NCBI GenBank assembly: GCA_010405405.1
Contig: MU004239.1
Coordinates: forward strand, 186,001 to 250,000
DNA from: Microthyrium microscopicum
Lineage: Eukaryota
Direction of reading: 5' to 3'
Length of the DNA stretch: 64,000 nt
Below the pieces are notes generated by a model. That model did no database searches. It was not told the DNA's origin and saw only the letters and a program-made list of their open reading frames with translations. Below are positions 33,713 through 62,986 of this stretch, piece after piece (positions within the stretch are counted from its first letter, which is position 1; every line of letters starts with the position of its first letter). The position numbers and the translations under genes are program-made.

Positions 33713-33771
33713 TATTTTAGATTGCCGTCTTGGCAACCATGATCCAGGCCAGATTCAAATTTCAAGCCATT

Positions 33772-34743: not shown

Positions 34744-35502
34744 ATGGCTACGCCCGCCGCATATCACCGCTACGCTAAGCACGGCTTTGCAGGTCTCGAC
34801 GGAATTCAAGCCAAACACATCATGAGAATCATGAATTCCCCTTGGGATGCAGACCAGGAAATTGCAAAGCAGATCAACGCGCTGATAAAGCGCTTCGCCA
34901 TCAAAAAGCACATGGAAACTTACTATCGAGCCCGTGGTTTGTCTGTGCCCAGAAACTATGTTGATAAATGCGACGAGCCCGGATCAGGGCGCCATAGCCC
35001 AGTTCCATCAGGGCCACTCGACCACGACCACTCACTTATTCTATACGAAGAACCGTCTTGGGACGAGAGACTGGCTACCGCTAAAGAACTCGCTGCGCAA
35101 GCACAACAAGCTGGACACGCCAGCGACGATATATTCCACATTTTCTTCTACGACGGTATTAATGTTGCACAGCAATGGCCGCCAAGTATACGCCTCATGC
35201 ACGAACCTTGGATGAAGAAATGCGTGTCCGAAGACCTTCGGATTCCAGTTGATGAGGTCACGCTGGAGAGCTTCCTGATCTGGGAGAGAACTGGTTGTTT
35301 CACTAAACCTTTCAGTTTGGGGTGGTTGCCACTGCAGAAGGGAGAAGACTTTCTAAGTGCCAACAAAGAACTGATAGCGAATACGAAGCGAATGAATGCT
35401 AGAAGATGGAAAGCAAAGGCACGAAAGAATGGACCAAGAAAGAAGAAGCAAACCAGAGTGACTGCCGTGACAGTAACGGTCTCGATTGAGGAGTCTGGAT
35501 GA
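34744..35502 (+). CDS. Hypothetical protein, RYAKHGFAGL family (modules N+C)
   Basis: MATPAAYHRYAKHGFAGLDG...MNS...SPVPSGPLDHDH...HIFF...MKKCVSEDLRIP...VTLESFLIWE. Confidence 0.8.
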   Translation: MATPAAYHRYAKHGFAGLDGIQAKHIMRIMNSPWDADQEIAKQINALIKRFAIKKHMETYYRARGLSVPRNYVDKCDEPGSGRHSPVPSGPLDHDHSLILYEEPSWDERLATAKELAAQAQQAGHASDDIFHIFFYDGINVAQQWPPSIRLMHEPWMKKCVSEDLRIPVDEVTLESFLIWERTGCFTKPFSLGWLPLQKGEDFLSANKELIANTKRMNARRWKAKARKNGPRKKKQTRVTAVTVTVSIEESG

Positions 35503-35638
35503 GAACTATCCTATATTGTAGCAGTTGTATACATATTGTATGAGTATATCAAGTTGTCAAGTAGCCGAAACCGCCATCGCACCAAGGGTCTACAAGTATT
35601 CAGAAGTAGCTAAAATTATGGGAGAAGAAGACCCAAGG

Positions 35639-35866
35639 CTAGGTGACCTGCTCGCTCATCAATGGGTATCCTGGCCAGTATTCTCGCAGCACTTGTTCAT
35701 TATCAAATATTCTGTCACCGTGCTCTACTGCTACTGTCTTCTCTTGTCGTTTACTCGCATAAACCGAATCTACTCTAAGATGACAGTCCACTTCTTTAGC
35801 TTGGACTCCATCCAGGCCGGCAAAGCCGTGCTTTGCATAGCGGCGCTGCACATCGTGTGTGACCAT
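35639..35866 (-). pseudogene. Truncated RYAKHGFAGL-family copy (N-terminal fragment only, 75 aa)
   Basis: MVTHDVQRRYAKHGFAGLDGVQAKE...VEHGDRIFDNE; resembles VDHGHDRIFESE of the 47134 paralogue; no C module. Confidence 0.6.
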
Positions 35867-36320
35867 AACGGTTCCCAGGTTGAATCTGTCGTGTAGGGCG
35901 AAAGATTTGTAGAAGCAGAGAAGCATAAATGAAGTGTAAACACCAAGAGCAACTGGTTTGTATTCGCTCTCATGTGTTTAGCGGTAGCTTTTCACATTTT
36001 GAAACAGATATATCAACATCCATTTCTATTGTGATATAATTCTAAAAGGAAGAGAAGATAGCCAATAGCAATGTTTCGTTATATCTGATAGCTCTTTGAA
36101 ACCCTACATACGCCTTTAGCAAGTAATATGGAGTGACAATAAAGAAGAGGCGGGCGAGTAAAGGATATAAGGGTCCCGAACAACGATCAATAACAATCTG
36201 AGTATTGGGATAACCTTAGAGAGATGATCCTGTACTCCGAGGCTCTGCATAATCCATACATTATATACATCCTGTCAGCTCGAAAATTTTGTATCCATAG
36301 AATGGGCAGATTAGGGCTCA

Positions 36321-39300
36321 TTAACGAGTCCAAAAGGCAATGATATCGTCAAAGTCTTTCGTCGTCAAGGTCTTAACATCTCGGTCCTCTTTAGTGATCT
36401 CCTTTCTCAAGCGAGAGGCTACTCTAAGGGCAATAGAGGCTTTTTGCACCTTGCCTGTCGCCTCGAACAATTTTCCTTTCAGGAAAGTAGTACGAGCAAT
36501 CTCGTTCTTATGTGCGTTCGGATCAACAGACCATATGTCCAGCGCCCCGTTGATCATAGCACTGAAAATGATTAACAAAATCTCAGCCAATGTAATGAAT
36601 GTGGGAGCACTTACATCGCTTCCTCGGCCCTTCCTAAACGGATTAGGTGCTCAGCAATCTTATAAGCAACCCTTGCGGTGTAAACATCCTTTTCGCCCAC
36701 CGTTTCGCGCATGTGGCGCCACGCCCTGTCATGATATTGGAAACTTTCATCCCATCGGTTCTGCGCGGAACGAAGGCTGCCGAGGGCAGAAAGAATCAAT
36801 CCAGTCTTCACAGATTCCCTGTCATCTTTGCCCAAAGCCTTTTCTCTCCCCGCTAAACTGTCCAACAGGAGCCTGTCACACTCTTCAAGCTTTCCCTGCG
36901 CAAGAAGAGCCCAGCTGAGAGTAGCCTCACCAGCACGAGGAACATAGTTGCCGAGGGCTTTACGTATGCGTAGCGCCTCCTTTAGATCCTTTTCTCCTTC
37001 TTCGTACCGTCTATCTTGGATGCGTGAGATCCCTCGCTCTGCGTAGGCGAGGTATAATCTCTCGTCGGCAGTGCCTAGATCTTTGCAAATTTTAGAGACT
37101 AGATCAAGAGAATGTTCCTTGTAAAAGCGGCTGCCATCGAAATCGCTCGCATCCATGGCAATAGCACCCAAGCAAAAGTAAATGTCTGCAAGCACTGAAT
37201 CCCGATCTGGGTGTGTTGAAGACTCGCATATACTACGAGCAGTGTCGAAGAAGCCGTCAAAAGCCTTTGTCCTCCCACGCTCTTTTTGATACCTGCAAAT
37301 GTTAGATTAACAGCAAGGGAATTGTTGTGATAGTTTATACGCACCATGCAGCCTCATTTAGTAACTTTGCAAAATGCAAACTGATGGCCTCAGAGGGATT
37401 TGGAACGACTGGCCAGAGCTGATGTATTCTTAGGACGTGGGGATAGATCGCCGCACATACAGGCCACCTTCCAACATGTTGCCTTCCACCAGTAGACTTC
37501 GGCTTAGGTAACTCTGGGTCCTTTGATGGTTTTGGCATGGCGGATGGCCAATCTGCCCAAAGGATTCGTACAACTTGGTCAAGCATAAACCGTTTCTTCG
37601 TAACATCCATTGTTGCCAAGATTGCATCTTGTACAATGCGATGCACCGATAGATGCTGCTTTTGCTTATCTCTCTGGACAAGAGATGACTGCAGGAGATC
37701 AGCTCGAGCCTCGATGTAGTTGGCCTTCTTGAAATGTGTGCCCTCGGAAAACAGATCTGCCGATGCTGCCATCAACAAGTCTTCTCCGGTGACATCTGGA
37801 TCAAGAAACGAAAGTAGCTCCAAGAGCTGGCGAGCTTGCGGCTTCAGCTTCTCAAATGCCCAGACAGTGGAGAGAGAATGACGATATGTGACCAAGCTGG
37901 TATCAAATTTCGTCTCATAAAGACTGGCATGTTCTTCATGGTCTTTATACAGCTCCAAAAACTCTGACAGGGTGAGGTCCTGTCGACGAATGATGCCTGC
38001 CATCTGAGATATGGCTAGAGGAATGCCACCGAGTGCGTTTGAGATTTTCCGCGCAGTATCATCTTCTGGCTCGTTGACAGTGGTAGTGAGATGGTTGAAT
38101 AGGGATAGGCTATCTTGTTGTGTAAGTGGACCGAGATCTAGGCCTGAGGGTCTTCTCGTAAATATGCTTTTGGACAATGGATCACGGCTAGTGACAAGAA
38201 TAGAGCCACTTCCTTGCGGCCAGTAGTCTGCAAGAACTATAGGGTCGTCTGCGTTGTCGAATATAAGCAGCCAGGTCGCCTCTGGTCTAGATTCACCGGG
38301 TTGATCAAACTCATCTGACCCCGAAAGATGCTTGCGAGGACAGGACAGCCATCCTTTCACAATTTCTCTACTGACGACCTGGCTCTTACATTCGGATGAA
38401 TCTTCGAGTCCTAGTGCCAATGAAATTTGCTGGTAATGTTCGTCAAGCTTCGCAATCTCATCCGCCGCAACCCAGAAGATTGCATCAAAGTCATTTTTAT
38501 GACGCCGACAAAACTCGCGGGCTATTTCCGTCTTTCCAATACCTCCAAATCCACAGAGTGCAAACTGTCGTAGAGCTGTACCTGACGCTGTTACTATGTT
38601 TTTCGAAGGTATGAGCTCGGCTGCAAGGCACTCCAAGATATCTTCGCGGCCGCAGAAATCGCTATTTGCAGATTGCGTGTTGAGCAGGAAGCACGGTAAG
38701 TTAAGAGTCTTCCCAATTTTAGTATTTGTTGTTGTAGGATATACCATCTCAAATCCCGCGAGAGATGTTCCTTCTGTTGCTCTGTTTGAAGGCCATTCTG
38801 TTGCTTTGTTTGATGGCCATTCGGTGAGTTCCACTTGCTCAACTAATAGAGGTTAGTACGGCGACTTGGTGAGACACGCACAACAAGCTCACCTTTGAGT
38901 GGTAGTTCACTCAATGTAGGCGAGTAAGCGCTCATCGTTGCGTATTGGTACTCCTCTGGGACTATTAGTCCGATTCTAGAGTCTATTGACAATTTCATAA
39001 CCTACGGTCCTCAAGTCGAAGTGCAACAAGACGCGTAGCGTCATGCAGTGTCTCGTGAATAAACTTGTTGAATTCGGCTAAGCCTTCGCCGCCAACGCTC
39101 TTGGTGAACAGACATGTATCGTAATGGTTGACATTGAGGCCAATAATTGTTTCCATTGGGGCATGTGTTGAACAAGTCTCGCGATAAACCAACTTGAACA
39201 CACGAATTAGTGTTCATAGATCAGCTAAGAGTGGAGACTAACCTGTTGGTATTTTGAGCGCAATGGCGTTGAACTGTTTTTTGTTTCTTTTAGTTCATAG

Positions 39301-40056
39301 ACAGAGAGTATCGGGGTACGGAACGAGATTCCTTCAAATCTGTCTGCGAGGTCAAGCAGAATGGCCCCTTCTTGTGCAATGTTGGCGTTTGGGATCTTCA
39401 GGTTTCTACCAGTAGTCGCTTCCAAGACATCGCGAAACTGTGTGAAGCTCGTGGTCCTGTCGCCGTAGCGATGAGGACTGCTTAGAAAGATTACTCCCAC
39501 TATAGCATTGACAATTGATCCGTACCGAGGGAACTGCTTATTGGCAACGCACAAAGCCTGTTTCACTACAATGCCACCTAAGCTGTGGCAGACAATAAAG
39601 ATTGGCCTGTTCGCGGTCTAATAAAGGCACATCAGCAAGCATACAGCGAGCCTAGAGGGGATGAACCTTGACTGTGCCACTTACCACGCGTGTGCCTATC
39701 TGTGAAGGCACGTCGCTTAAATGCTGGAGAAAGTCGTAGCCCAGCATCAAAATTGACTCCCATGAGGGCTTCGTGCCCATAAATGGCGAAGCGTATTCGT
39801 ACGCAAGGATACGCGCCGCAGCACTGAAGCCAGGTATGGTGGCGAGCCAGGCTTCGTTTGCAAATGGCCAGTTCTCGGGTGAGGTAGTTCCAATGCCAGG
39901 AACGAGGACGACGCTAGATTTAGGCGTAAGTTGAAGAAGCACCGAACTAGACTTGGTTATAGCCTTCGCTTACTCGATACCATCCTGAGAAGTATCCACA
40001 GGATCCCTCAGGACTCGAAGGCGGCCGGTCGCTGCAAAGCTCATCACTTTAGCCAT
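36321..40056 (-). CDS. NLR-like protein: SesB-type alpha/beta-hydrolase + NB-ARC + TPR; 8 exons, apparently intact
   Basis: VVLVPG, RPIFIVCHSLGGIVVKQAL (nucleophile elbow), P-loop LCGFGGIGKTEIA, WLLIFDNADD, GSILVTSRD, LGGIPLAISQMA, TPR-like ALRIRKALG and REKALGKDD; all splice phases checked. Confidence 0.88.
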
Positions 40057-43256: not shown

Positions 43257-44161
43257 ATGTCCACCCTCGAGAGAAAGTATGTGCTCTCTATACCAGAGTT
43301 TATAACGAGTGAATATGAAAGTTAACAAGGTTGCGTGTCGCTAGCTTCCCCGCAATACGCGCCTGCATCTTCGACATGGACGGGCTTCTCATCAACTCCG
43401 AAGACATAATCGGTCAAACCACGAACTATCTTCTTGAAAAGTACGGAAGGCCTGCCCTGACTCGCGCCATTCGAGCGCAGCTCATAGGTGTCTCGGGGTC
43501 AACAAATGGTGATGTGTTTCACAACTGGGCGAAGCTGCCCATCTCCCGCGAGCAATTCGCCCGTGAATCTAGTGAGCAAATGCGACTGCATTTTCCAGAT
43601 TGCGAGCCGATGCCCGGCGCCGAGACGCTTGTGTCGAACCTTAGCCGTGCGTGTATTGCTTCTTCTGGGGATATGATTGAGCTGGCATTAGCATCCAGCA
43701 CCAAGAGTCGTTCCTACGAATTGAAAACTTCCAAGCCGAGAACGAAACAACTACTTGAGTTCTTCCAGTCAGAGAGGCGAATTCTCGGCGACGACCCACG
43801 AGTGCGATTGGGTCGAGGGAAACCAGCGCCTGATATGTATTTAGTTGCGTTAGAGGCATTGAACGCGACTGCAGACTCTGACAAAGATCCCATCTTGCCT
43901 AACGAATGTTTGGTCATCGAAGATAGCGTGGTTGGGGTAGAGGCGGGACGACGGGCTGGGATGAGGGTCATTTGGGTACCGCATCCAGACGTAGCGCTCG
44001 AATATCAAGCTAGACAAGAGGATGTGCTGGCTGGAAGGGTGGGTTTAATCAAGATCGGAGACGACTGGCAGCTAGGAGATATTGAAGATGGATGGGCTGA
44101 ATGTATAGAGAGTCTAGAACAGTTTGATTATAACAAGTATGGTATACAGGTGCCGTCCTAG
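43257..44161 (+). CDS. HAD-superfamily phosphatase (HDHD1/GS1-like); one short 5' intron
   Basis: ACIFDMDGLLINSED, ALASST, GRGKPAPDMY, ECLVIEDSVVGVEAGRRAGM. Confidence 0.9.
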
Positions 44162-44396
44162 CCTTTGTAGAACAACATTGCCGGTTCAAATTCGTTGTTT
44201 GCTTCTCAGTGTACAAGGAAGGGCTCCGACTAACAAACGATCGTCCACTTGCCTAATAATAATGCCTAGTCCCTCGATATTTAGCCACATAGTGTGGAAG
44301 ATCAGCTAAGTACGGTTGTACGGGACGACCCGATCCATGTGGGCTTAGCACCCTGCAAGGCTGCAAATAGTACACCAGACACTAAGAGAGAATGTA

Positions 44397-44521
44397 ATTT
44401 GAGCAAGCTAATTGGCTGAGATCTGATGTTGATGCTTCATTTCATTCTTTAAATTCATCACGAAGATATTATCAGCCAATAACAATCGATTATTGTAGTG
44501 GTGCAGCCAATTAGCAGTTCT
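44397..44521 (-). repeat. Degenerate inverted copy of the interior of the 33456 MITE, with no TIRs
   Basis: aagatattatcagccaataa (44463-44482) is the exact reverse complement of 33560-33579; flanking similarity on both sides. Confidence 0.7.
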
Positions 44522-44793
44522 GAAAGAGTCCTGTGGTTACAGTACTTGTAGAACCTGGACAAGGTATTCGAAGGTAGTAAAGAGATGGAGGGTCGCTTAC
44601 AATGCTCACTACCTGATAAGCTCAGAACGCGTGGCAGAGTTACAATACGTAAGGTGCGGGGGCTAGAACATCTGCATTTTAATCTCGAAGGGGAAGGCAG
44701 TATTTTGATTCCCTATCTTGGGATTCTTGGCTGAGTTCTAAGTTCTAGACTGTTGTAGCATTCCAGCATTTCAGCATAGGGGTATCACTCCTA

Positions 44794-46027
44794 ATGGGTC
44801 AATTCGTCGCAGTAGGAAATTGTGTTCTCGATACCATTTTGAGGTACAAGTTTCTTCCATATGTCCGTTTGTTCCTTGTTCCATGGCTGATGGGACACTA
44901 CTCTAGCGTTCCACATTTTCCTGGAGAAGATGATAAGCTGCGCGCCTCTAACATCACGAGAAGAAGGGGAGGAAATGCCCCAAACACAGTCGACGTGCTT
45001 CAACAACTTTTCGCCAGCGATGATGAGGCAGATCGGACCATTGGTCTGAATTTGATCGTGGTTCTCCCCAACCGCGCATCACCGGCGGTTCAAGAGATAC
45101 AACGGTCGTTGGGATCTGGAAAGGCCATAACAAAGAGCATTTATCGCGAGGACTACTTTGAGGCTTCGTCGAGCTACATCATCAAGAACCTGGCGACTGA
45201 CAGCAGGACGATAATTAGTTACAATTCCTTGCAAGATATGAATTTCGAAGAGTTCACTCAGATCGCAGGATCCTTCGGCAATGAGGCAGTGTGGTATCAT
45301 TTCGAAGTAAGACTCCGCTCCTCTTGTTTTTCCCCAACGTTCGAACATCTGATCACAATAGGGTCGCATACCGGATGTCACATTAAACTGCATCCGATAT
45401 CTGAGGAAGTCGGCGCCAGACGTCAAGATTAGCGTAGAGATCGAGAAATTCCCAAGAGAAGGGCTGGAAGAGCTTGTCCCCGAAGCTGATGTTATCTTCT
45501 ACTCCAAGATCTGGGCTGTAGTACGTAACCCTGCGGTACCTCTACTGATATCCTGGTATCTTAACATGATTCTAAACAGGGAAATGGATACAAAGATGCC
45601 GAAGCTTGTCTTCGAGCGCAAGCAAAACTTGCTCCCAGCGCGTGAGCTTATGCTTTTCATGCTTCGCATTGGGCTAACAATTATCTACCAGACTCCTTCT
45701 TTGCTGCACCTGGGGAATGCAAGGCGCCTCGGTTTTCGAACCTGCAACTGAAGCCTATTATCACAGAGCCGCATGGGTGTCAAAGGACTCCCAAGTCGTT
45801 GAGTAAGCAAATAGGTTTCCTCCTTACGTGAAAAAGCTGACTCTTTTAGTACCATTGGGGCAGGTGACACGTTTATTGCAGGAATGCTCTACTCGTACCT
45901 CGCACCCAATAACAACTGGCCGGTTTCCCAGAAACTCGAGTTCGCCAACGAGCTTGCAGGACGGAAAGTGGTCCAGGAAGGGTTTGCTGGCCTTGGAGGG
46001 CTCGTGCATCGTGGATTGCAGCAATAA
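44794..46027 (+). CDS. PfkB-family carbohydrate kinase, ketohexokinase-like; about 5 introns
   Basis: VAVGNCVLDTIL, FPGEDDKLRA, RRGGNAPNT, WYHFEGR, C-terminal TIGAGDTFIAGML...ANELAGRKVVQEGF. Confidence 0.85.
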
Positions 46028-46330
46028 TCATTAGGTATAGGCCGAGTATTGGCGTGTCTGTTGCTCTTGATAAAGATATGTTAGTACAGTCGGCATTGGA
46101 ACCAAGTTGCTATGTGGTGCCTACACCTTGACTTGCGTCTTCAAATGCTAGAATCGTTATTTGTCTTGACGCCCTGATGACAATAAGTTTTGCCATACGA
46201 CAACTCGTCTTGTTCATCAAAGCACGGTACTTCGTTGCATCATTCTTGACCTTCCGCTTTACTACATTGATACAACCATAAGATCTGTCTCATCCAGGTA
46301 CCTGTGTAGCAGCTACTGCCATTGAACACC

Positions 46331-50800: not shown

Positions 50801-53117
50801 AACCACTTACAATCCATAGAATCAAAAAAGTGTCAATCCCGGCCTACTTAATTCTGTGGACGATGCTGGGCAATTCATTCTTCATAATGCATCCATGATA
50901 ACAAGGCTTCCACTGCAGACGTACGCCTCAGCACTTGCTTTCAGCCCAGCTGGAAGTAGCATCAGAGAAAAGCAATGGCGACTGCGCTCTCCCGGTATTG
51001 TCGACGTGAAAGGGTCTCAACGTTCTTGGAGTCACCTCATGCAAACTGTGATGAATGACGACAAAGACATAGCCCCGTTCGTCGGAGTTGTCTTTTCACA
51101 TGATAATTTATCTCTTGCGACAATATCAAATACCGGGGCGATCATGACCTGGGATGTCATTACGGGCCAATTGAAGCAAGCCATAACGTCAAACACAGAT
51201 CATTATTCACTTCGAACGGAGACTCCTGAAAAGTTTCCAGAATGTTTCCCGCAGGGCATAGATTTCTCTCCTGATGATAGTATATTGGCTGCCATTTCGA
51301 TGACGGACACTTCAGTCCGGCTATGGAATGTTGAGACTGCCAAGCTGGAGAAGACCTTAGAAAACAAAGAGAATCCTGATGAGCCATTTCATCTCGTGGC
51401 GTTCTCACCAAATGGCTTCTTTCTTGCTACTGCTTCCAACACGCAAATACAACTGTGGAACCTTGCCACAACCTCTTGCGAAAGAGTGTGGACAGGCATC
51501 ACACAAGCCGTCGCTTTTTCAGCAGACTCTACGTTACTTGCTACTGGACTAGAAGAGAGTGGCAGTTATCCTATTAAAATTTGGAACGCTATTGCTGGTG
51601 ATCTGGAAGGCTCAGCCATGCACGGCCACCGGACCGCAATCACTACACTCGCTTTCTCGCCAGATTTGGAGAAGAAGCTCCTGGCGTCCGGCTCAGACGA
51701 GAGCTCTGTGAGGGTTTGGGATATATCAACTTGTTTACAACAGGATATTCTCGAAGACAAGTACGAGAAATTTAGCAATGGCGCCATGAAAATGCTAGCC
51801 TTCGCCCGGGATGGAAAAGAGCTTGTGTCCTGGCAGCAATACGGCGTGAGTTTATGGGATATGAGCACGATGCGCAAAGTGAAAAAGATTGCTGACTTCG
51901 CGGTCACCATATCACCTGTTGCTATTTCTGCTGACACAAAGACCGTTACAGCTTGTCACGGTCGTAGCTTCAAGTTCTGGCATACCAATGTCGCAGGAGA
52001 CAACCCATCGTCAGGACCAGGCGATTCGTTTCTGCCCAGTGAACATGTCTTCGGGATGGCCTTTTCTCCAGATGGTGGCAAACTTGCCTTGGGGACACGG
52101 CAAACCGTTTACATTTGGGATGTTGTGAAGAATGCCCTTGATCATATTCTTGATAAGACTTGGACAATGGCTTTTGACAAGCTGTTCTTTTCTTCGGATG
52201 GTATGACTCTTGCAGTCTTGCTAATCGAGCCTGATGTTGATATGGATACAAATGCAATTCAACTCTATGATGTGAGAACCAAGGCCAAAGGACCAAAGCT
52301 GGATTGGTTGAAAGGCACAACAGTAACCATTTCAATCGATCATTCGATGCTTGCAGCAATAAGCACTAATGAGAGCATTCAGCTCTGGAATATGTCCGCT
52401 AGTACAGGCACTAAAGTGAGACTTCCAGGCACTATACATGGAAAGCTTGCATTTTCTCCAAATGGCAGACATTTAGCCTGTCTGATAGGTGATACAATCA
52501 CAATATGGGATGACTCAGGAGCTTGTGTCAACACGCTAGCAAGCGTTATATCAGAGATTACGAGACCTGACAGAATCCACTACTTTGCCATCTCCCCTGG
52601 ATGCGATAACATCGCCATTGTGGGCAATTTTTGGGGTTATTTTCCTTCTCGGTGGAATTTGGGGCTTGTGGATCGAAATGGTTCTGTGACCAATTTGGGC
52701 GACGTCAAGCTATTTTATAACAAGGTCGCATTTTCCAACAGCGGAGGCATTCTCGCGGCACAGACAGGCAAAGATATCCAATTTTGGAACGTGGCCGTTG
52801 ATCCACCTGAATTGCTTTGCAGCGTTGCTTCGTCTCAACATGTCTCGCATTTGTCTTTCTCAGCAGACGACTCGACGTTAAACACAAACATGGGACCAAT
52901 GAAGACACCGTTGGGGACGAACGAAGTTCTGACAAGTGATAAGGGAACAAAGTTGGCGATACAGGATGGCTGGATTGTTCAAGGCGAGCCATTGATATGG
53001 GTTCCTACTGAATATCGACCTGACCCGTTGCAAGACCCGGTTATGGTTTCTGGCGATCGAATGGTAATAGCACACAATAAGGAAGGCTGCTCTTTGTTCC
53101 ATATTTCGAGCGGATAG
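47818..53117 (+). CDS. NLR-like NACHT-WD40 (NWD) protein; introns 47936-47983, 48664-48712 (probable GC donor), 50771-50819
   Basis: LWDDAYDSIK, ALPWAGVC (NWD N-terminal domain), Walker A LLWIKGDAGTGKT, Walker B VYFIVDALDEC, YSCVYWAEHL, WLESLSLLG, multiple AFSPD...W-D/N repeats. Confidence 0.9.
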
Positions 53118-53372
53118 AGCATTATCTGGAGTCATTTAGGAATCATTCGCCTTTATTCACGAAGCTAGGTCATGATTACTGATATGTAACTCTTGACACT
53201 TTTCGCTTGTCATTGATGAGAAGCTTTCTCAAACTCTTATCGTTCATCTTCTCCAAGACTATTATCGATATCATCAACACACATCTTGACTCGTCCATTT
53301 TAATGCAGCCCCAGAGTGGCATTACTGGATCTGACATCGTCAAATATGGCCCCGTGTTGTACACTTCCACTT

Positions 53373-54575
53373 TCAAGTTTGATTTCTCCTTTTCCCTGGA
53401 TCCACGCCTTCAGACTTTGCCTTTTGCTTTTCGACCAGCATTTTCTTCCATCTCCGAGTATCTGCCTTGTTTACTTGGTCTACAGGAATCTCCAGAGCTT
53501 TCGCTACATGCTCTGACCGTCGTTTATCCTTGAGCCACCATTTTTTCTTCAGCTTTTTGAGACCCAATGCCTCCCATTGCCGGAAGCTTTCTATAGTGAC
53601 TCGATGGCAAGCTATTCCAAGATCCTTTGCTACCTGCTCTTTCATGTAAGTTCCGTATACGCCGACCGGCTTACTAAACCCATGCGCAGCGCTCTTGTCA
53701 AAGGTGAAGAAGATCTCGTGCATCTCTCGCTTGTCTTTTTCGGCAGCAGCATCCTCAATCCCATTCAACGCGACGTCACTCCCGTCTTGACGAGGCGATC
53801 CTCTGCGAACCCGCTTGCTCTCGGAACTCAAATTCGACTTTGAGTTCGCCGTTTGAGGTTCAATCTGTCCTGCAGGCGTGGACGTGTGATGAATGCGTTT
53901 ACGCTTGTTCGACTTTTCAGCTCTCCATTTTATCTGCATCTCTGCCAGCCTAGCTTTCTTTTCCTGATCCCGAGCTTCTTTCTCAGCAACCCGCTGCGCT
54001 TTCAACCACCCATGTCTACTCGGCTTCTCATATCCCAGTTTCTCCCATATTAGAAAACTCTCCATCGTAACCTCGTGGCGCGTCATTCCAAGATCCTTTG
54101 ATACCCATTGTTTCATGTGGTGCTCGTACTTCTTGCTTAGCCCCTGCTCCACGTTGAAAGCCCTGGGATTGAAGAATATCTCGTGCAATCCACGGGGAGC
54201 TCGTGCCGCCTTCTCAACGGCTGCTTTAGCGGCAGCCAGCTGTTCTGCTGTAGGGGTCGACTTTCCAACCTTCACCTTGGGCGTAAAATGATTATGATCG
54301 ACTGGCCCGGGAGGAACTGGACTATCTCTGTAAGATGTACGACGCCCAGTGCTATCCCATCTCCAAAGATATCTAGGCTGTCGGCTAACAAGGCCATGCG
54401 GAGCTAGTTTCCTGTGCGTATTGAATTCCCGTATCAACTGATTGATGCTTTCCTGATAAGGCCTGTCTTCTTCATCTTCCGAGTTCATAATCGCTCTGAT
54501 GTGTTTAGCGGTATCCTCGTCTAGAGCTGCAAAGCCATGTTTTGCATAGCGATATCGCGTTAAGTATGTAGCCAT
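53373..54575 (-). CDS. Hypothetical protein, RYAKHGFAGL family (N+C+C)
   Basis: RYAKHGFAAL...SPVPPGPVDHNH; two C modules: HEIFF...MKQWVSKDLG...VTMESFLIWE and HEIFF...MKEQVAKDLG...VTIESFRQWE. Confidence 0.8.
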   Translation of the reverse strand: MATYLTRYRYAKHGFAALDEDTAKHIRAIMNSEDEEDRPYQESINQLIREFNTHRKLAPHGLVSRQPRYLWRWDSTGRRTSYRDSPVPPGPVDHNHFTPKVKVGKSTPTAEQLAAAKAAVEKAARAPRGLHEIFFNPRAFNVEQGLSKKYEHHMKQWVSKDLGMTRHEVTMESFLIWEKLGYEKPSRHGWLKAQRVAEKEARDQEKKARLAEMQIKWRAEKSNKRKRIHHTSTPAGQIEPQTANSKSNLSSESKRVRRGSPRQDGSDVALNGIEDAAAEKDKREMHEIFFTFDKSAAHGFSKPVGVYGTYMKEQVAKDLGIACHRVTIESFRQWEALGLKKLKKKWWLKDKRRSEHVAKALEIPVDQVNKADTRRWKKMLVEKQKAKSEGVDPGKRRNQT

Positions 54576-54981
54576 TAGGGCTGATCAGTGTCATCATCAA
54601 TCAGATTAGAGAAGTAGATAGTAGCTAGATAGTGAATTGGTGATAACGTGAGAAGTTGAAACACAGTTCAAGGTCACCGCAAGCGCTCGTTATCTCGGCC
54701 AATTGCCTTGCGTGAGCGGTTTTCGTACGCAAGCATGTATATGCCTGTTTGCGAAATGTATAATATCCCACCAGTTGACCTGAGTTTGAGATCAAGATTG
54801 TAAAGGAGTTGGTATGATTTTGCCGCGTTATGCCCTGCGTACATGCCATAGCCGCGGCGCGTCTGTACCTCCTCACTGCCGATGACCGTGGCCATTGCGC
54901 GCTGACTCCTATCCGTCACGCAGGAATAGCACTTCGCAGATCAGCACATCTGGCACGAGAAATTGCCATCAATCATCACAA

Positions 54982-56139
54982 ATGTCTGCCCATCTCAACC
55001 TCGCCAACCAAAATTTCTTCCGCGAACTATGTGAGTGCAACAGCGATGTTGATCCCGCAGAACTACGCAGTCGCTGTTTGAAGGGGCTTGAAAACCTCGA
55101 CGTAAGCAAACTGATAGAATCGACCACCGCACTCGTAGCTGGAGAGCTTCAGCGTGCGAGAACAGCGAAGCAATTGCGCAAAATAAAACAGCGAGATGCT
55201 GCTATACGCAAGCTCCGGCGGAAGCAGATAAGGGCGAAGAGGCGCTTGGCGAGAGAAACAACCATTCATCTCGACAATCCAGCGTCTGATGAGGATGACA
55301 CGCTAGTAGCCAGCATCGAACAACCAACCAAATCTACACTCACGCAAGCGGACCTCGAATTCGACTACGATAGAAACAGAATGCGCGATCGCCGATTGTC
55401 TCCGGGTCGCGTCAATCGTCCTCGACACGGTGACTGGGATTTAACGCACGATTTCAAATCGAAATTTTCCATACCACAGCCTTCTCTTCCTTCTTCGAGC
55501 GGCGACCTTAGCGGCGATAAGCAGAAATCGGCAAGAAGCTTTCCCCAGGAGGACTTCTACGATTACTTGAAATATGTGGATCCAGCACACCATAACTACG
55601 ATTTGTATGCCTGTCACCGTAAAGGTCGCGACGGCTCACCATCGTATGATAATGCCGGGTATCAACTCGACTGGGAAAAGGTTGATGGATGGATGAAATC
55701 AGATAAAAAGGTGTCCGAGATGCGCTTTGATAACGGGAAAAAGACCATTGCAGAACAGGACAGGATGAACAGAGAAGAAAGATGGGCGTACAGTCAGAAT
55801 CGCCTTGATACGGATAATCGTGAGATGGAATATATCTTTTTCTCGCGTGGACTACCAAACGCTCCGGTGTCTGACTACGAGTTTTACATGAGGGATCGAG
55901 TGTCCAAAGATCTTGGCGTTCCCTATCACCAGGTCACCATAAAGACTTTCCAACGGTGGGAACGACGGCTGGAGCGGAAAATGATTGACAAGCCTGATTG
56001 GAAGAGGTGGTGGCGGCGTGACCCTAGTGATGAGGATAAAGCGAGGGAGCATAGGATGAGGATGAATGCTCATCTCAGAAAGGATGTGCAAACGGAATGG
56101 GTGAACAACCACTGGGTTATCGTAAAGGATACTGATTGA
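54982..56139 (+). CDS. Hypothetical protein, DLEFDY family (M+C)
   Basis: LTQADLEFDYDRNRMRDRRLSPGRVNRPR, CHRKGRDGSPSYDNAGYQLDWEKVD, YIFF...MRDRVSKDLGVPYHQ. Confidence 0.8.
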   Translation: MSAHLNLANQNFFRELCECNSDVDPAELRSRCLKGLENLDVSKLIESTTALVAGELQRARTAKQLRKIKQRDAAIRKLRRKQIRAKRRLARETTIHLDNPASDEDDTLVASIEQPTKSTLTQADLEFDYDRNRMRDRRLSPGRVNRPRHGDWDLTHDFKSKFSIPQPSLPSSSGDLSGDKQKSARSFPQEDFYDYLKYVDPAHHNYDLYACHRKGRDGSPSYDNAGYQLDWEKVDGWMKSDKKVSEMRFDNGKKTIAEQDRMNREERWAYSQNRLDTDNREMEYIFFSRGLPNAPVSDYEFYMRDRVSKDLGVPYHQVTIKTFQRWERRLERKMIDKPDWKRWWRRDPSDEDKAREHRMRMNAHLRKDVQTEWVNNHWVIVKDTD

Positions 56140-56497
56140 AGGGCATCATGAGAGCTCGGGATAGGCTATGAGACATGAATATCGTACACGAGTTCACTGA
56201 GTAAACACGCCGAAGAACTATTTTTGAATACTCAAGGAACGCATTGTAGAGCTAAAGTATTTAGTAGTGCTCCATTCAATACTAGCAAATGATTAACATT
56301 ATCGGTATCAGGCTGACGGGTATTGGCTGACCAATCAAATATTTCATCCGTGTTGACGCGCCCCTTGCTTTGACGCGTCCATTCTAATCGTCGCGTCGTT
56401 CCTATCATTATCACCTTAGCTAACAAGTCGCCCATGTTATCTACCTAGGTACTTGTAAAGATTGTCACACTCTTCGTCTTTCAACCTCTCAATAAAT

Positions 56498-57466
56498 ATG
56501 TGTGATCATGAAACACAATACCGCTACGCGAAGCACGGATTTGCAGGCCTTGATAAATCGGACGCTCGGGAGGTCAGACTGGTGATGGCCTCTGAATGTG
56601 AAAAGGACAAGGAATACGCCAGAAGAATAGAGGCCCTGATCAGAAGGTTTGCCGCAGAGAGGAAGTCGAACGCTATTGCCAGAGCTGCTGGTAAAACGGT
56701 TCATCCTCCTTGGATCTGGAAGCGCCATTCATATGGAAGAGATGGACGAACAAGGGTCGAGGATTCTCCAGTACCAGAGGGCCCAATTGACCACAGCCAT
56801 CATGATCCAGTGCTTACTGACATGGCCCGGACGAGGTACGACAAAGACGTCGCCGAATACAAGCTACTACGCGGAAGATCGGAGCATCTCAGTCCATCCA
56901 AATCTAATGAAAAGATTAGTCTCCCTGCCGACGAGACAAGCCCTTTGGCTAAAGGCCCCGCCATGGAAGCACCCGACGACAGTCGATGGATGGAAGAGAT
57001 ATTCTTCAAGAATGGCAAGCGCTGCAATTTTGGACAAAAAGAACGCTCTCTATTTGAACCCTATATGAAAGCACGTGTATCGAAAGATCTTTTCATTCCT
57101 GCCTACCGAATCACACATGAAAGTTTCCTGGTCTGGGAGAAGAAAGGATTCGACAAGCCTCGTTGTAAGGGGTGGTTGAAAAAGCAACAACGTAGAGAAA
57201 GGGCAGAGCTTAAGGTACGCTTGGAACGTCCGGAATGTACAGAAACCCAACTGCGCATAGAACGTTTAGAAATTGCGTCGCGGCAACGTCAGATGCAGGC
57301 TTTTCGTGACGGGGATCCATCATATCAGCGGAAATTGAAGAGACGGAGTGCGCAGAGAAAAGAAAGAAAACTAAACAGGCAAACAGCACAATCCCACAAG
57401 CAAAGGCAGAAGTCGAAACAAATTGGACATGACGGAGGCAAAGAAAATGGCGGTGAACTTTTCTGA
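56498..57466 (+). CDS. Hypothetical protein, RYAKHGFAGL family (N+C)
   Basis: YRYAKHGFAGLD...SPVPEGPIDHSH...EEIFF...MKARVSKDLFIP...ITHESFLVWEKKGFDKP. Confidence 0.8.
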   Translation: MCDHETQYRYAKHGFAGLDKSDAREVRLVMASECEKDKEYARRIEALIRRFAAERKSNAIARAAGKTVHPPWIWKRHSYGRDGRTRVEDSPVPEGPIDHSHHDPVLTDMARTRYDKDVAEYKLLRGRSEHLSPSKSNEKISLPADETSPLAKGPAMEAPDDSRWMEEIFFKNGKRCNFGQKERSLFEPYMKARVSKDLFIPAYRITHESFLVWEKKGFDKPRCKGWLKKQQRRERAELKVRLERPECTETQLRIERLEIASRQRQMQAFRDGDPSYQRKLKRRSAQRKERKLNRQTAQSHKQRQKSKQIGHDGGKENGGELF

Positions 57467-57615
57467 GAAACTCTGACAGGCTCAAACTTACTCTAGCACT
57501 TCCCTACCCCACTATCGTAATGTCCATTGGTATTTCTTCTCAATATCTTTTGATCAGAATTGAGGTCTATCACTTAATTCAAATGATACATGTGGCGAGC
57601 ATCTGTCCTTAAATC

Positions 57616-60373
57616 ATGGGTGCACTCCCTGACTTTGTTAATTTGAATGCATATCGCCGATACAAGCAAGATACAGATATCGTAGCCACATGGCTCGCAA
57701 CAACTGCAGAACAGCTTGGTTACTCAACTGAGACCTTGAAAGGCACTAAAAAGGTGCAAAAGAGTCAGCGTCTCAAAGGAAAGGCCCGAAAGTTAGCAAA
57801 AGAGGCTGCTACTCAATCTGCAGCAACAACTACTGCTTCCCCTGAGGCAGCGATTCCAAATTACACGATAGCAGTATCTGATTTTGCACTCCTTGCTGAG
57901 TACATTTCTGAAAAACAAGGATTTCTAGTCCCAGGACACATATCAGGAGCTCTCAACCGAGCAATCAAGCTACGGAAAGGTCACAATATCTTTTATGCCA
58001 GCCAAACCAATGACGGAGTCATCGACGCAGAAGAGGATGATAAGCGGCATCAACATTTTGTTGAGATCTTGGAACAAGCTAGAGATTTACTCAATCTAGG
58101 GCCATCCAATGAGTCTATTGCTTCTGCAAGCCAAACAAATAGGCACACCTCTTCCCAAATTGAAGATGATGAACTCGTCTTTAACAACATGTTCCAAGGT
58201 TTGAATGTTGAAGAACCATCGGATGAATTCCTCAATGCACCAGCTAAGCCAATGGCTGCGACACCAAGTGCGATCTACCATGTGGACTCATCGGCTGATA
58301 CTTTGGATCTGTATCTTGCAATTGCCGCATTACTACATGATCTGGCTAGCATTCGCAACGCGATTCAGCAGATTTGGAGTCAGTATGCTCAAGGACAAAT
58401 TAGTCTGATCTCGGCTTCGGTAACTACCAACACTGCGATACAGCTTGCGGGTCAGCTAGAAGAACAGTTCATCAAGGATTATCCCGCCGAGAAAGACACT
58501 GGACTCGCCCGTGAGAAATTCCTCAAGTTTCAGTACATGATGCTTGGAGAAGACTTCAGAGCCAATGCAAGGCCCGGAGAGTCTATCAATGTCAACCGCT
58601 ACGACTTGGTGGACTTTACACTTACAAACACACGACTGATTCTCAGAGGATTTGGAAAAGTGTGCAAAGACGCGAAGGGCGCTCATCCGTTGTTCAAAAA
58701 CGGATTCTTTGGTGTTTATAATCCATTAGCAGACCGATCCAAGATGACTGGCTTTCAAAAGTTCGACGAGGATAAAATTCTTCTCTTGGAAATGATGCCC
58801 GACATTCTACTATTTGTCTATCAATGGGAGCTCACAGGGTGTGATGAGTTCACAAGAAAAGTTTACGACTTCTGCAAAAACTATGAAGAATCGCTGTTGC
58901 TTGACTTTGTGGCCCAAATATTTTTATTGATTCATCATACTTTGCGTGAACGTGTTGGGATGGCTTGGAAAACATTTTCAACTTATGCTCGCAATTGCGA
59001 AGACTCCATCAAGGAGAGCATGGCTTTTCATAACGGCCAAACGAATCCAAATTGGCCACAGGAATACCACATGATGCTGCGAGAATGGGCACGCAAACTT
59101 GGAGACATCGTGCTTGACAACGCCATCCAGACTGACAAAAATAGACATGTAAGTCGATTAACCTTAACACGATACGAAAACTAATTCGAGATTAGACCAT
59201 AAATAACGGATGGGTACGTCATAGTTTCTCCTTCTTGAAATTTCCGTGTCAGGTTTTCCGAGCGAACATCTCTGCAGATATTGGATTTGGCTTCGAGTCA
59301 ACTCAATATCAAGATCCAAGAGGGCCAAAGGCAGGACCGTTTACTACTACGCCTCCTTGAACTACAAATCATGTTTCAGTGACTAATATGAACATCAGTA
59401 TCCCGAACCCTACACACCATACCAATTCTATATCAATCATCCTTGGCTCTGCGGCTCTCTTCTATTCGGAACGAAGATGGAGATGCAAGAACTTGGCTTA
59501 GGACTCAGTAATGCGTGGGGCTCAATCAAGTTTGCGGCGCACATTTACAATGCAGCTAGGCAAGAGAAACTCCTAGAAGGACACTGGGAAGATATGGAGC
59601 TTGCGCTACGTTTCTACGGTCATCAGAATATATTCGTAGGCAGTGAGCCCAAACAGCCCGAGGATTACTACAGGCGTTGGTGTCTAGCCATGGGCTATTC
59701 AGCGCAAAACTTCGCCAAAGGTAAACGTCAAACCCAAAAGTTCATTCCGTCCAGCAAGGGACCTCGTGGACAGCTCGAATCACGACATATCACTCCTTTG
59801 GCTGATCAACTTCGATTTGGCTACACGCTGTTAGATCGCAAAAAGGCGGCGCCAAGTCTAGAAACTGTTCTCAAGACATGTTTTGACAAGGTCGCGGCTG
59901 CCGGGGGCAACAGCATTGCTGTAGATGATTTCCTTAAGTCTCAGAATTCACGAACCAGGAAACATCTGACCAAACAGTTCTCACTAGCTGAATTGCTACA
60001 GATCTTCTGTGCTGGGCTAGTGGACGAGGAATTGGCACTGACCTTTGATCACTTCCACCTCCATCGTACCGCATGGGACGTACTTCGGGACATTCACAAG
60101 GCAACTGATGCTGATCTCTCACAATACTACGGGGCAGGCTACTTAGAAACCGAGAGTCAGCTTCCGTTTATGATTGGTTATATTTTCATGACAGCCATTG
60201 ATGCGAAGAAGCTGGCTGGATTCCTATTGCCAAAGAAAGGAGACGTTATCAGTTCTAAACTGTTGGCACAGGCTGCGGAGGTATTTTCGGAGATGATTGA
60301 CTCTGACATTGGTCAGTCAGAAATCAAAGTCTTGCAGGACAAGTACAGCATGGCTTTAGAGTACGAAGAGTAA
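57616..60373 (+). CDS. DUF6604-like fungal protein; introns 59149-59195 and 59214-59398 around an 18-nt microexon
   Basis: N-terminal YRRYKQDTDIVATWLATTA...RLKGKARK...RAIKLRK...HQHFVEIL, NNMFQGLNVEEPS; C-terminal HPWLCG, AHIYNA, WEDME, YLETESQLPF. Confidence 0.75.
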
Positions 60374-60519
60374 GACACCGTTCAGCAAGTAGACGACTTG
60401 AGTTCTCTTCGATACAGGCAGATAAAATTCTTACGGTAGCTCGAGCTGTGAAAGGATAATGGAAGCTCCTATGTGTACACCAGAGGTTTCCGTAAGAGTT
60501 TGAGATCTTCGACAATCAA

Positions 60520-61644
60520 TTACAAGTCCACAATTTTGTAGCTTTTTCGATCCTTGCTTATGATCGTTCGTGTCCGTTTTCTCAGAGCCTCGCCAGATAT
60601 GCTCTCTACGCGCAGCCTTCTCGCCTCTTCCTCCTCATTGGGCTCACGCCACCAATCTGATGCAATAGGCTTCTTGAACCCCATCTTCCCCCAACGTTCC
60701 AGCTTGGCCATATCTAATTGATGGAACGGAGCCCCCATATCTTTTGATACATGATCTTTCAGGTAAAAGTCGTACTTGTGAGGCGGGACATCCTTTGGCC
60801 CCTGGCCACCCTGGAAGAATATGAGATTCATCGTATCGTGATTGTACGATATATTTTGTTCTGGCACTTCAGCCTTCGTCATGGCCTTTTTCGCCTGCTC
60901 CGCCATTTCCGCCATTCTGGCAGCGTTTGTCTTTGGCTGGAAGCGCATAACATAGTCGTCAACCAGTTCCCAATCGTACTGATAACCAGCGTTGTCGTAG
61001 CAAGGCGAGCCTTCTCGGCCTTTCTCGTGACAATAGCGTATGCCATAATCATCGTCGGCGGGATCTAGGAGTGCGGTCTGACGACCCCTCTCGCATTGCT
61101 GGCGCGATTTCAGCTGAGCCTGTTGGTGCTCACTCAGGCCTTCCTGTGGAGGTTCGAGCTGACCTGGAGGATCTGTTGGTATTGGAACGTAGAACTGTGA
61201 TCTAAATTCCTCTGTCATGTCCCAGTTGCCGCGCCGGGGGCGGTTGACGCGACCTGGTGATGGTCGAGGATCCCGCATCTTGGTCCTGTCGTAGTCGAAT
61301 TCGAGGTCAGCGAGTGTCAATTCTGGCTTTGCCTGATCTTCAATGCTAGGGATTGCCTTTTCCACAATGAAGGTTGGCGTGACAAATCTTGGCTTTGGTT
61401 TTCGACGCTTGCACTTTTTGTTGGCCAATTTCCAGTAAAGAGCTGGATTCGTCTCTCGCAATCGTCGATCGTTTTCTATTTTCACGCGTTCGGCTCCTTC
61501 TCGGCGTGCATTCATTCGACGCGCAATTATCTGATCGGCTGGGCACGTCGATTTCATCAATGTTTTCACGGCTTTAGCTTCGTCCTTGCTAACGCCCGCG
61601 GAACCATATTGTCCCCAGCGATACTGTAGGTCCGACGAAATCAT
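60520..61644 (-). CDS. Hypothetical protein, chimeric member (degenerate N + M + C)
   Basis: QYRWGQYGSAGVSKDEAKAVKTLMKS resembles QYRYAKHGFAGLDKSDAREVRLVMAS; LTLADLEFDYDR...PGRVNRPR; CHEKGREGSPCYDNAGYQ; IFF...KDHVSKDMG. Confidence 0.8.
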   Translation of the reverse strand: MISSDLQYRWGQYGSAGVSKDEAKAVKTLMKSTCPADQIIARRMNARREGAERVKIENDRRLRETNPALYWKLANKKCKRRKPKPRFVTPTFIVEKAIPSIEDQAKPELTLADLEFDYDRTKMRDPRPSPGRVNRPRRGNWDMTEEFRSQFYVPIPTDPPGQLEPPQEGLSEHQQAQLKSRQQCERGRQTALLDPADDDYGIRYCHEKGREGSPCYDNAGYQYDWELVDDYVMRFQPKTNAARMAEMAEQAKKAMTKAEVPEQNISYNHDTMNLIFFQGGQGPKDVPPHKYDFYLKDHVSKDMGAPFHQLDMAKLERWGKMGFKKPIASDWWREPNEEEEARRLRVESISGEALRKRTRTIISKDRKSYKIVDL

Positions 61645-62071
61645 AGTTATGATGATCCTTTATGGGGAAAGCATCGATAGAGAGATTGATAATAGTAAAA
61701 ATAGACTGATATGTAATGGCATGCGATCAACTTTCAATCCAAAAGTCGCGTTGTGTCCGAGCGCTGTCGCGACTGTGGCGTATATGCAAGGCTGTATAAG
61801 GCTGAAATTGATCTGCTCTGATTGGCCCTTAGATGATCATGCTCTTCATGAATGATTCTAGATTTCGGTAACACCCAGAAAGTGTATTGCGCACTAACAC
61901 GATTACCGAATGCCGTCAACATCAAAGTATGAAGTCTCCAGGAAATGTCTTTGGCGGACAATGCAATCATAAGAGCAGTTCCCAAACGGCTCAATTACTC
62001 TAACAACATTGAGTCAATGTCATGAACCGAGGCAACGTTGAGGAGAGCATTGATGTGTAGATTGGATATTG

Positions 62072-62986
62072 CTATAAGTCCTTCCTCAGACCTCCACCCC
62101 TACGCATTTTTGACTCTCGTTTCTTTTCTTCCTCATTGGGTTCATGCCACCATGTTTTTGCGTTTTGCTTTTCAAATCCCAGCTCTTGCCAATTGCGAAA
62201 GCTAGCTGAGGTTATTTGATGATAAGGAATTCCAAGGTCTTTCGATAGCTGGTCCTTCATGTAGAAACCCCAATCCCAAAAATCCATATCAAACTCTGGA
62301 CCTCCATCGAAGAAGATTTCGAACATCTTCTGCCGCTCCTCAAACTCCGTGTCCATGTAATCCCTGGACTCGTTCACTATTCTATTCTTGTTATAAGCCC
62401 GGGGCTTCGTCCACTTGTCAACTTTCTTCCAGTCAACCTGGAATCCGCCTTCGTCATAAGTAGGCGAGCCATTTGGACCCTTTTTGTGACAGATGTATAA
62501 GTGATGGCAGTCATAGTAAGGACTCGAAAGGCTCTTCTTGCGAAATGTCGCGTCCCATTGACTTTGGAATGGCAAGATTTCCCCTAATTTGAGGGGCTCT
62601 GGGATGTCAAATCGGGCCTTGTATGAGTCTGTGAGACCCATATTCTCCAGATCGTGCTCATCGTAGCGTGGTCGTGCTTCTCGGCCTGGGGTTGCTCGAG
62701 GATCCCGCAATTGGCTTCTGTTGTAGTCAAACTCAAGATCCGGTGTCGTTAGGTGAGGCTTTGTCTCCTTTGCAATTTGAACGTCTGGCTTGGTCTTGGA
62801 CGTAGCCTTCTTGCGCCCACTAATGGACGTCTTCGGTGCCACCTTGGTCTTCTTGGCAGGTTGGCCTGCCTGGGGCTCATCTTTCGAATGTCGCTTCGAA
62901 TTTTTCGAGTTGATTGAGGACGCACTCGATTGCGTCAGCTTTCCCTCCATCGCGTTAGATTTCGTGCCAGCTCGAGTTGTAGGCAT
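62072..62986 (-). CDS. Hypothetical protein, DLEFDY family (M+C) with a basic NLS-like N-terminus
   Basis: PAKKTK; LTTPDLEFDYNRSQLRDPRATPGREARPRY; CHKKGPNGSPTYDEGGFQVDWKKVD; EIFF...MKDQLSKDLGIPYHQ...WWHEP. Confidence 0.82.
   Translation of the reverse strand: MPTTRAGTKSNAMEGKLTQSSASSINSKNSKRHSKDEPQAGQPAKKTKVAPKTSISGRKKATSKTKPDVQIAKETKPHLTTPDLEFDYNRSQLRDPRATPGREARPRYDEHDLENMGLTDSYKARFDIPEPLKLGEILPFQSQWDATFRKKSLSSPYYDCHHLYICHKKGPNGSPTYDEGGFQVDWKKVDKWTKPRAYNKNRIVNESRDYMDTEFEERQKMFEIFFDGGPEFDMDFWDWGFYMKDQLSKDLGIPYHQITSASFRNWQELGFEKQNAKTWWHEPNEEEKKRESKMRRGGGLRKDL

Follow-up and report, generated by a model that had tools for sequence, protein, structure and literature searches.

A seven-copy array of an uncharacterised Pezizomycotina gene family in Microthyrium microscopicum, four members of which carry an orphan module in place of half of the family domain

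We analysed a 64,000-nucleotide stretch of the Microthyrium microscopicum genome (assembly GCA_010405405.1, contig MU004239.1, positions 186,001 to 250,000), here called the window and numbered from its first letter, in which an earlier note had described a cluster of intronless genes built from three modules, N, M and C. Our analyses found seven gene copies, A to G, inside 28 kb, and with a probability of roughly 0.55 we read them as paralogues of an uncharacterised Pezizomycotina family, forming a cluster that is old, maintained and expressed, in which the proteins of the N+C type are derived and for which a nuclear role is suggested. As it stands, this is an ordinary lineage-specific expansion of a gene family, with one clear replacement of a domain by an orphan module.

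Open reading frames (ORFs) of the family were called by translating positions 34000-64000 of the window with the standard code. Copies A (34744-35502, + strand, 252 aa, in a frame open from 34696), B (46331-47140, -, 269 aa) and E (56498-57466, +, 322 aa, with a long linker) have an N module followed by a C module, and copy C (53373-54575, -, 400 aa) has N followed by two C modules and a third, partial one. Copy D (54982-56139, +, 385 aa) consists of M and C behind a helical, basic N-terminal extension of its own, copy G (62072-62986, -, 304 aa) is a canonical M+C protein with a basic, disordered N-terminal tail, and in copy F (60520-61644, -, 374 aa) an N-like stretch, N' (residues 1-55), precedes M and C. 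The copies were recognised by their ORFs, together with the C-module hidden Markov model (HMM) for B, C and E, the motif scan for B, D and E, tblastn and the M1 and M2 motifs for F, and homologues for G. The HMM and motif scans bear out the architectures that the earlier note had listed (N+C for A, B and E, N+C+C for C, M+C for D and G, N'+M+C for F). All eight places that it had counted as genes exist, and the one at 35866 on the minus strand is a remnant of 26 codons, so that there are seven genes; the starts that it gave fit as well, except that 47134 is the second methionine of the copy B ORF (47140).

The remnant (35789-35866, -), recognised by tblastn and translation, corresponds to the start of N and lies tail-to-tail with copy A. 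It reads MVTHDVQRRYAKHGFAGLDGVQAKEV, and the likeness to the family is gone after ...AKEV, from where the frame continues to a stop. Its tblastn match (35789-35872, -) has 52-65% identity with the opening 26-28 residues of copies A, B, C and E, and an inverted repeat, I2, pairs the start of copy A with the remnant (34737-34815 / 35795-35873, 71% complementary). When the whole window was searched by tblastn with the seven proteins, matches were confined to the seven ORFs and the remnant, and none fell in positions 1-34000. A short common stretch, TTCAACCT, was seen about 15-20 nt 5' of the start codons of the remnant and copy E (35867-35920, -, and 56444-56497), with a weaker likeness in other copies (e.g. 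34690-34745); it may be a common start-site context, or it may be chance.

The distribution of the motifs separates the two types of protein. In six-frame scans by regular expression, N1 ([RK][YW][AG][KQ][HY]G[FS]A[GA][LV]) was found only in A, B, C, E, F and the remnant, and N2 (SPxPxGPxDH) only in A, B, C and E. The core of M1, DLEFDY, and M2, GSP[TSC]YD (at 55633, 60994 and 62453), were found only in D, F and G and are missing from A, B, C and E. In full, M1 reads L-T-x-x-D-L-E-F-D-Y ... R-D-x-R ... P-G-R-x-x-R-P-R and M2 reads C-H-x-K-G ... G-S-P-x-Y-D ... G-x-Q-x-D-W. Residues 1-53/55 of copy F match the N1 part of copy E by tblastn with 42% identity (44.7 bits). Among the four N+C proteins the mean pairwise identity is 0.48 in N1, 0.67 in N2 and 0.50 in the C core, against 0.16 in the middle of N, 0.33 in the linker and 0.22 in the loop, and this agrees with the earlier description of conserved motifs separated by diverged linkers.

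What joins the two types is the C module, whose pattern in the family is I-F-F ... Y-M-K-D-x-V-S-K-D-L-G-x-P-x-H-Q-I ... W ... G-F ... W-W. The C-module HMM matched all seven proteins, with eight full modules (domain E 4e-34 to 6e-30), namely one each in A (residues 111-203), B, D, E, F and G and two in C (residues 111-200 and 266-356). A third, partial C-like stretch, SEHVAKALEIPVDQVNKADTRRWKKM, was found at residues 354-389 of copy C (53373-53515; domain E 1.1e-6), and by these matches the helix-loop-helix core of C is repeated more than once in that protein. Pairwise comparisons of the C modules of the N+C type with those of the M+C type gave 35-57 bits. When the four N+C proteins were compared with 62 M+C proteins by hhalign, the two profiles aligned with a probability of 98.5% (E 2.5e-15) over 72 columns, which are the C module. 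The resemblance of the C modules, on which the earlier proposal depended, is thus significant from profile to profile.

The M+C form belongs to a wider fungal family. A homologue search with copy G returned 76 proteins including G itself, that is 75 others, and those with a source name were from Pezizomycotina only (the remainder carry no source name). The named members come from Xylariales, Fusarium and other Nectriaceae, Aureobasidium, Pleosporales, Cladosporium, Lithohypha and Apiospora, so that the family spans Sordariomycetes, Dothideomycetes and Eurotiomycetes and is patchy among fungi. Judged by these matches, the M+C form is not lineage-specific. Nearly all of the named homologues are annotated as hypothetical, and the best non-self identity to G is 48-54%. 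The match to the family extends over the whole M+C domain of G, D and F (E down to 1e-75), and the N-termini of the family are basic, low-complexity tails preceding PRLTTPDLEFDYDRSQLRDPRPTPGR. The alignment of 62 M+C rows has 13 invariant columns, all of them kept by G, D and F; those in the M part include D83, D95, P100, G101, C166, G170 and D178. The 59 rows from other fungi have 62 columns with a conservation of 90% or more; of these G keeps 57, F 48 and D 47, and by this count copy G is the most canonical of the window copies.

No Pfam family was found above noise in the seven window proteins, so that they do not fall into one characterised housekeeping family. The only meaningful Pfam match in the aligned members was the SAP domain, in two of 62 with one more marginal match (E 0.0086); precomputed SAP matches exist for four of the 76 proteins, all from Aureobasidium and all N-terminal to the family domain. 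In the seven window proteins, which differ in this from the Aureobasidium subgroup, no SAP domain (PF02037) was found at E up to 1. No mention of the family was found in the searchable literature by six of its locus tags or four of its motif strings. A second subtype of the family (P0084, P0085, P0088 and P0089; loci L006-L016) was seen which is without the DLEFDY part of M and has EKTPGR..GPI...IKIAPFKGPKG at the front of M, with the usual M2 and C behind it; variation at the front of M is thus not confined to the window. In the related metagenome loci the family is present at a single place in 22 of 22. No synteny with them was seen: when the 208 window ORFs of 80 aa or longer were compared with these loci, matches came from the family ORFs only. 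Compared with this unnamed family, then, D, F and G share its whole M+C domain and A, B, C and E share C only; the window differs in having seven copies in 28 kb instead of one place per locus, in the four copies that carry N where M stands, and in the faster evolution of its copies.

The N module was found nowhere else. When the N+C profile was run exhaustively with HMMER against 1,835,955,588 representative proteins, 15 matches reached E <=0.001, and the only carriers of N among these representatives were A (recovered as P0080), B, C and E of the window (E 2e-103 to 3e-85). One further match, P0081 (5817 aa, 13 weak stretches, E 6e-23), was rejected as a carrier, being highly repetitive and rich in S, G, D, A and N; we take it as a bacterial adhesin and its score as an artefact of repetition. 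In nine of the ten remaining matches the aligned part is the C module alone, at profile positions of about 99 and above. P0089, a member of the second subtype without N motifs, has a stretch over profile positions 27-190 (E 3.1e-4). A word-indexed search with the N+C alignment found two window proteins only, among 8000 candidates scored, and hhalign gave N1 a probability of 0.09% against the SAP-bearing N-termini. The claims of the earlier note that N is lineage-specific and that it replaces M on a shared C both stood, since only the four window proteins carry N and since N stands in the place of M before C. Within the reach of these searches, N is an orphan module.

A structural model of copy G was obtained with AlphaFold 2 from the 62-row alignment, with a mean predicted local distance difference test (pLDDT) of 83.2, a predicted template modelling score (pTM) of 0.73 and 198 residues at 90 or above. 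The first 70 residues are disordered in the model, and from about residue 80 the means of 10-residue blocks are mostly at least 90 (84-98, with one block at 75). M and C are predicted to fold as one compact, mostly helical unit and not as two separable domains. As they also occur together in the canonical members, the free shuffling of three modules put forward in the earlier note does not hold. The G model had no match at E <=0.001 in the PDB by Foldseek (best E 3.5) and none at that threshold in BFVD, the G profile gave a single match to PDB sequences (E 0.31), and the ESM Atlas gave no usable match, either to G or to the first 100 residues of copy C. The wide fold search tested mostly residues 194-287 of the G model, which was folded as a whole; the domain of G has no clear match among solved structures in these searches, and a new fold is not claimed for any part of it. 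The model of the N+C protein, from an alignment of four rows, had a pLDDT of 61.5 and a pTM of 0.38, and at this low confidence it suggests three helices in N1. A complex prediction for G 75-304 with copy C 1-196 scored 0.00; it was run without the alignments and with an uncertain fold of the partner, and the score weighs neither for nor against binding.

Some residues that the rest of the family keeps have been lost from the C modules of the N+C copies. Seventeen columns of the C region are at least 90% conserved in the family, and we compared them with the five C modules that A, B, C and E have between them. F225, F226, D250, L251, W266 and W279 are kept in all five and K249 in four. At position 245, where all 60 of 60 family rows have D, the five modules have K, K, Q, E and A, and at position 256, where 58 of 60 rows have H, they have D, D, H, H and Y; copies D, F and G keep both D245 and H256. 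The N+C proteins therefore share the C module and yet are not canonical members. Polar positions were released and the hydrophobic core was kept once M was gone, which suggests that D245 and H256 work together with M. Perhaps these residues contact M, or they might form part of a site that includes D83, D95, C166 and D178 of M. The N+C proteins would then no longer perform the function that depends on M.

The copies are old. By the method of Nei and Gojobori (NG86) the number of synonymous changes per site (dS) was undefined through saturation in eight of nine pairs and 2.0 in the ninth, with nonsynonymous changes (dN) at 0.58-0.70; dN/dS cannot be estimated because dS is saturated. Since seven frames of 252-400 codons have nevertheless stayed open, we read the duplicates as old and maintained by selection, and the local expansion proposed in the earlier note is not supported as a recent one. 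Its description of the copies as rapidly evolving agrees with the trees, where the end branches of the window rows are long: they measure about 1.0-2.2 changes per column in the C-module tree, whose median is 0.35, and 0.93-1.17 in the M+C tree, whose median is 0.27. The C-module tree joins the five modules from A, B, C and E in a single clade (support 100/91) whose sister is D (100/83), and it groups G with an unnamed metagenome protein. D and F are sisters in the M+C tree (97 by the Shimodaira-Hasegawa-like approximate likelihood ratio test, SH-aLRT), and D, F and G are on the same side of a weakly supported branch (72). Forcing the eight window C modules into one clade costs 6.25 log-likelihood units and is not rejected (p = 0.399 in the approximately unbiased test). 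These results are compatible with, though no proof of, one local expansion in which N replaced M once. The changes seen on comparing the copies are one replacement of M by N, one duplication of C and new N-terminal extensions.

The history that we favour would begin with an ancestral form like copy G and its 75 homologues, in which a basic disordered tail is followed by M and C as one domain. The gene would then have multiplied locally, with G staying canonical and D and F keeping M+C and gaining N-terminal extensions, that of F being the first half of N. N would have taken the place of the entire M half just once, in the line that led to A, B, C and E, and copy C would have gained its extra C.

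Evidence for expression came from a public run, X1, whose RNA label is a guess and which contains 91% of the sampled words of 53300-63000. Eight X1 contigs matched 44000-63500 at 99% or more, with ten joints. Nine of the joints skip 47-63 nt (as printed, seven are GT..AG and one CT..AC), and they are located in a ribokinase-like gene, downstream of the stop of copy B and in a NACHT-WD40 gene. Because the contigs are without these nine short intron-like stretches, we read the run as spliced RNA. None of the ten joints is inside B, C, D, E, F or G, the six copies covered by the mapping, copy A being outside the mapped region. For these six the absence of introns noted earlier is confirmed, as are the introns of the neighbours, and the copies are transcribed as far as RNA contigs over all six can tell. 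The bins holding B and D are covered by X1 contigs, spliced contig record 2 runs from the NLR (nucleotide-binding oligomerization domain-like receptor) gene unspliced through copy C to 54731, and spliced contig record 3 runs from 56492 through E, a DUF6604 gene, F and G to 62993.

Three observations on these contigs concern the neighbouring sequence. The tenth joint is in the DUF6604 gene (57616-60373), where X1 skips 249 nt (59148-59398) with the ends GT..CA and 17 other letters between; this may be an unusual intron, or the source of the run may differ from the window. At 44794-46065 (+) is a gene without a Pfam match in its largest ORF, in which an X1 contig skips five short GT..AG stretches, so that this neighbour is rich in introns, unlike the family copies. 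The CT..AC joint (46065-46125) is about 200 nt downstream of the copy B stop, on the strand of B.

The first 34 kb of the window are occupied by housekeeping genes (proteasome subunits, ribosomal L1, CCT-beta, UBP and a Na/Ca exchanger). Interleaved with the array are two NLR genes, a CorA-like gene, a HAD hydrolase gene and the DUF6604 gene. NLR 1 (about 36611-39969, -), between copies A and B, has a lipase-like N-terminal part containing CHSLGG (IFIVCHSLGGIVVKQAL; ORFs 39225-39617 and 39652-39969), NB-ARC with DUF7779 at 37335-38747 and TPR repeats at 36611-37156. NLR 2 (about 48262-53117, +, in a gene from 47900) is of the NWD type, with NACHT_N, NPHP3_N/NACHT and a WD40 propeller; X1 contigs skip 47935-47984, 48661-48711 and 50768-50818, which fit introns and join the ORFs into one gene. 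No family motif was found in either NLR gene by tblastn (E up to 0.01) or by six-frame scans for N1, N2, M1 and M2. Two inverted pairs were seen near the array, which may be small repeat elements or chance: one of 49 nt (33453-33715, 90% complementary, 165 nt apart) just upstream of it, and one of 54 nt (33544-33597 / 44445-44498, 80% complementary, 10.8 kb apart) which brackets copy A, the remnant, the NB-ARC NLR gene, the CorA-like gene and the HAD gene. A scan of the region between C and D for bacterial promoters and terminators found nothing, with a bacterial model that is not apt for a fungus. Nothing was found in the window that would link the array to the NLR genes or to mobile elements.

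Four other explanations were weighed against this history. The N module could be M itself, shrunk and diverged, so that N+C and M+C proteins would be collinear homologues and nothing would have been replaced; MAFFT does set the N motif GR...SPxPxGPxDH under the M stretch PGR..RPR...IPxP...DPxxH, and in copy F the first half of N stands before an intact M. We consider this improbable, given that hhalign found no relation between N (four rows) and M (residues 70-205 of the 62-row alignment; probability 0.27%, E 0.22) and that the whole-profile comparison aligned the C part only. As copy F has N1 beside an intact M, N1 is an addition and not a remodelled M, so that N1 at least is not derived from M. 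That the N+C copies are decaying, functionless relics might be suggested by the one plain remnant and by the family-invariant residues that they have lost. This is hardly credible with four frames of 252-400 codons open in spite of saturated dS, motif blocks 48-67% identical against linkers at 16-33%, and RNA contigs over B, C and E. An origin of the copies as genes of a mobile element, or domesticated from one, would suit their lack of introns, their presence on both strands, the patchiness of the family and the basic character of the proteins. It is very unlikely, as no terminal repeats flank any copy and the only repeats among copies are motif-coding stretches, as no transposase, integrase or reverse transcriptase family was found by Pfam and no match in BFVD, and as the 22 related loci have the family at one place each. 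Nor do the copies have a signature of repeat-induced point mutation (TpA/ApT 0.49-0.67; (CpA+TpG)/(ApC+GpT) 1.20-1.43), and their G+C content at third codon positions, 0.47-0.54, is like that of the neighbours.

The last alternative is the one that the earlier note had preferred, a conflict system of toxin and antidote, allorecognition alleles or decoys guarded by NLRs, with the N+C proteins as site-dead mimics titrating the M+C proteins. In its favour, the array shares a variable stretch with two NLR genes, and 34 kb of housekeeping genes come immediately before; its copies are on long branches and N is an orphan. Contigs of run X1 cover copies of the two types alike, and the loss of D245 and H256 would be decoy-like. 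In fungi, cell-death genes are known to be clustered with their sensors (PMC10197012). Set against this, saturated synonymous sites speak against recent birth and death, the scans found nothing of the family in either NLR gene, Pfam found no pore-forming, nuclease, kinase or other killing domain, and the canonical family is widespread and, in the 22 related loci, confined to one place per locus. We regard a conflict system as unlikely, and the typing of the array as allorecognition, drive or NLR guarding has only the neighbourhood to speak for it.

Comparison with known systems leads the same array to be likened to several of them in part. Events of the kind seen here have precedents, and the Neurospora 'rummage region' consists of clusters of lineage-specific genes (Wang et al. 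2023, PMC11628664). The window array is a lineage-specific gene cluster too; it differs in that the window sequence does not place it near a telomere, that its parent family is identifiable and widespread, and that no long repeats or large non-coding tracts surround the copies. Fungal NLRs with an adjacent executioner include NWD2/HET-S, and gasdermin with a protease (PMC10197012). The likeness is in small genes close to NLR genes in a variable region, and the difference is that the window NLRs and the family have no motif in common and that the family has no cell-death domain known to Pfam; the link that defines NLR-partner pairs is therefore absent. No execution domain (HeLo-like, gasdermin or patatin) was found in the seven proteins by Pfam, and fold searches gave no clear match. 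Spok and wtf are multi-copy, lineage-specific and diverged families of killers or toxin-antidote genes, defined by drive in crosses. The window family resembles them in its multi-copy, diverged, lineage-specific paralogues, and differs in that its copies are old, with saturated dS, and its parent family broadly conserved.

We return to the reading of an old, maintained and expressed paralogue cluster, and to what its proteins might do. All seven proteins have an isoelectric point of 9.2-10 (copy A 9.2) and a window rich in K and R (at least six in 12 residues), which in G is short and mixed with acidic residues. The K/R clusters are N-terminal or internal in D and F and C-terminal in A, B, C and E (residues 214-239 in copy A and 244-268 in copy B). 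From the basic isoelectric points, the clusters resembling nuclear localisation signals and the SAP fusions in Aureobasidium, we read the proteins as nuclear, and they probably contact chromatin or nucleic acid. D83, D95, C166, D178, D245, K249, D250 and the near-invariant H256, which come from both M and C, would probably form one binding or catalytic site. In the N+C proteins C might serve as a scaffold or partner-binding unit for a new N-terminal function, and these proteins are possibly regulators or competitors of the canonical protein.

Several points weigh against this reading. The X1 contigs carry neither strand, start nor level, and all 30 bins are covered, intergenic ones included, so that part of the signal over the copies might be read-through or antisense RNA. 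Long branches in all window rows may pull placements together in the trees, and a warning of long-branch attraction was given for A with B. The K/R clusters are a matter of composition and are putative localisation signals only, and the SAP fusions are from a single genus. The clustering of the invariant polar residues comes from sequence and not from distances in the model, the model of the N+C protein is poor, and the function proposed is our inference only. A long-kept toxin-antidote or allorecognition pairing, in which M+C proteins with a nuclear composite site would be blocked or redirected by site-dead N+C mimics, is a long shot; if a conflict reading were true, the copies would add a new type to the fungal genes for incompatibility or drive.

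These results define a widespread fungal family that has no Pfam entry and no clear solved structural counterpart. The array is also a natural experiment in which half of a domain was replaced by an orphan module and otherwise invariant residues were lost, and these losses point to positions that depend on M and hence to a likely functional site. It would thus be a case of an orphan segment born on an old scaffold and then long kept.

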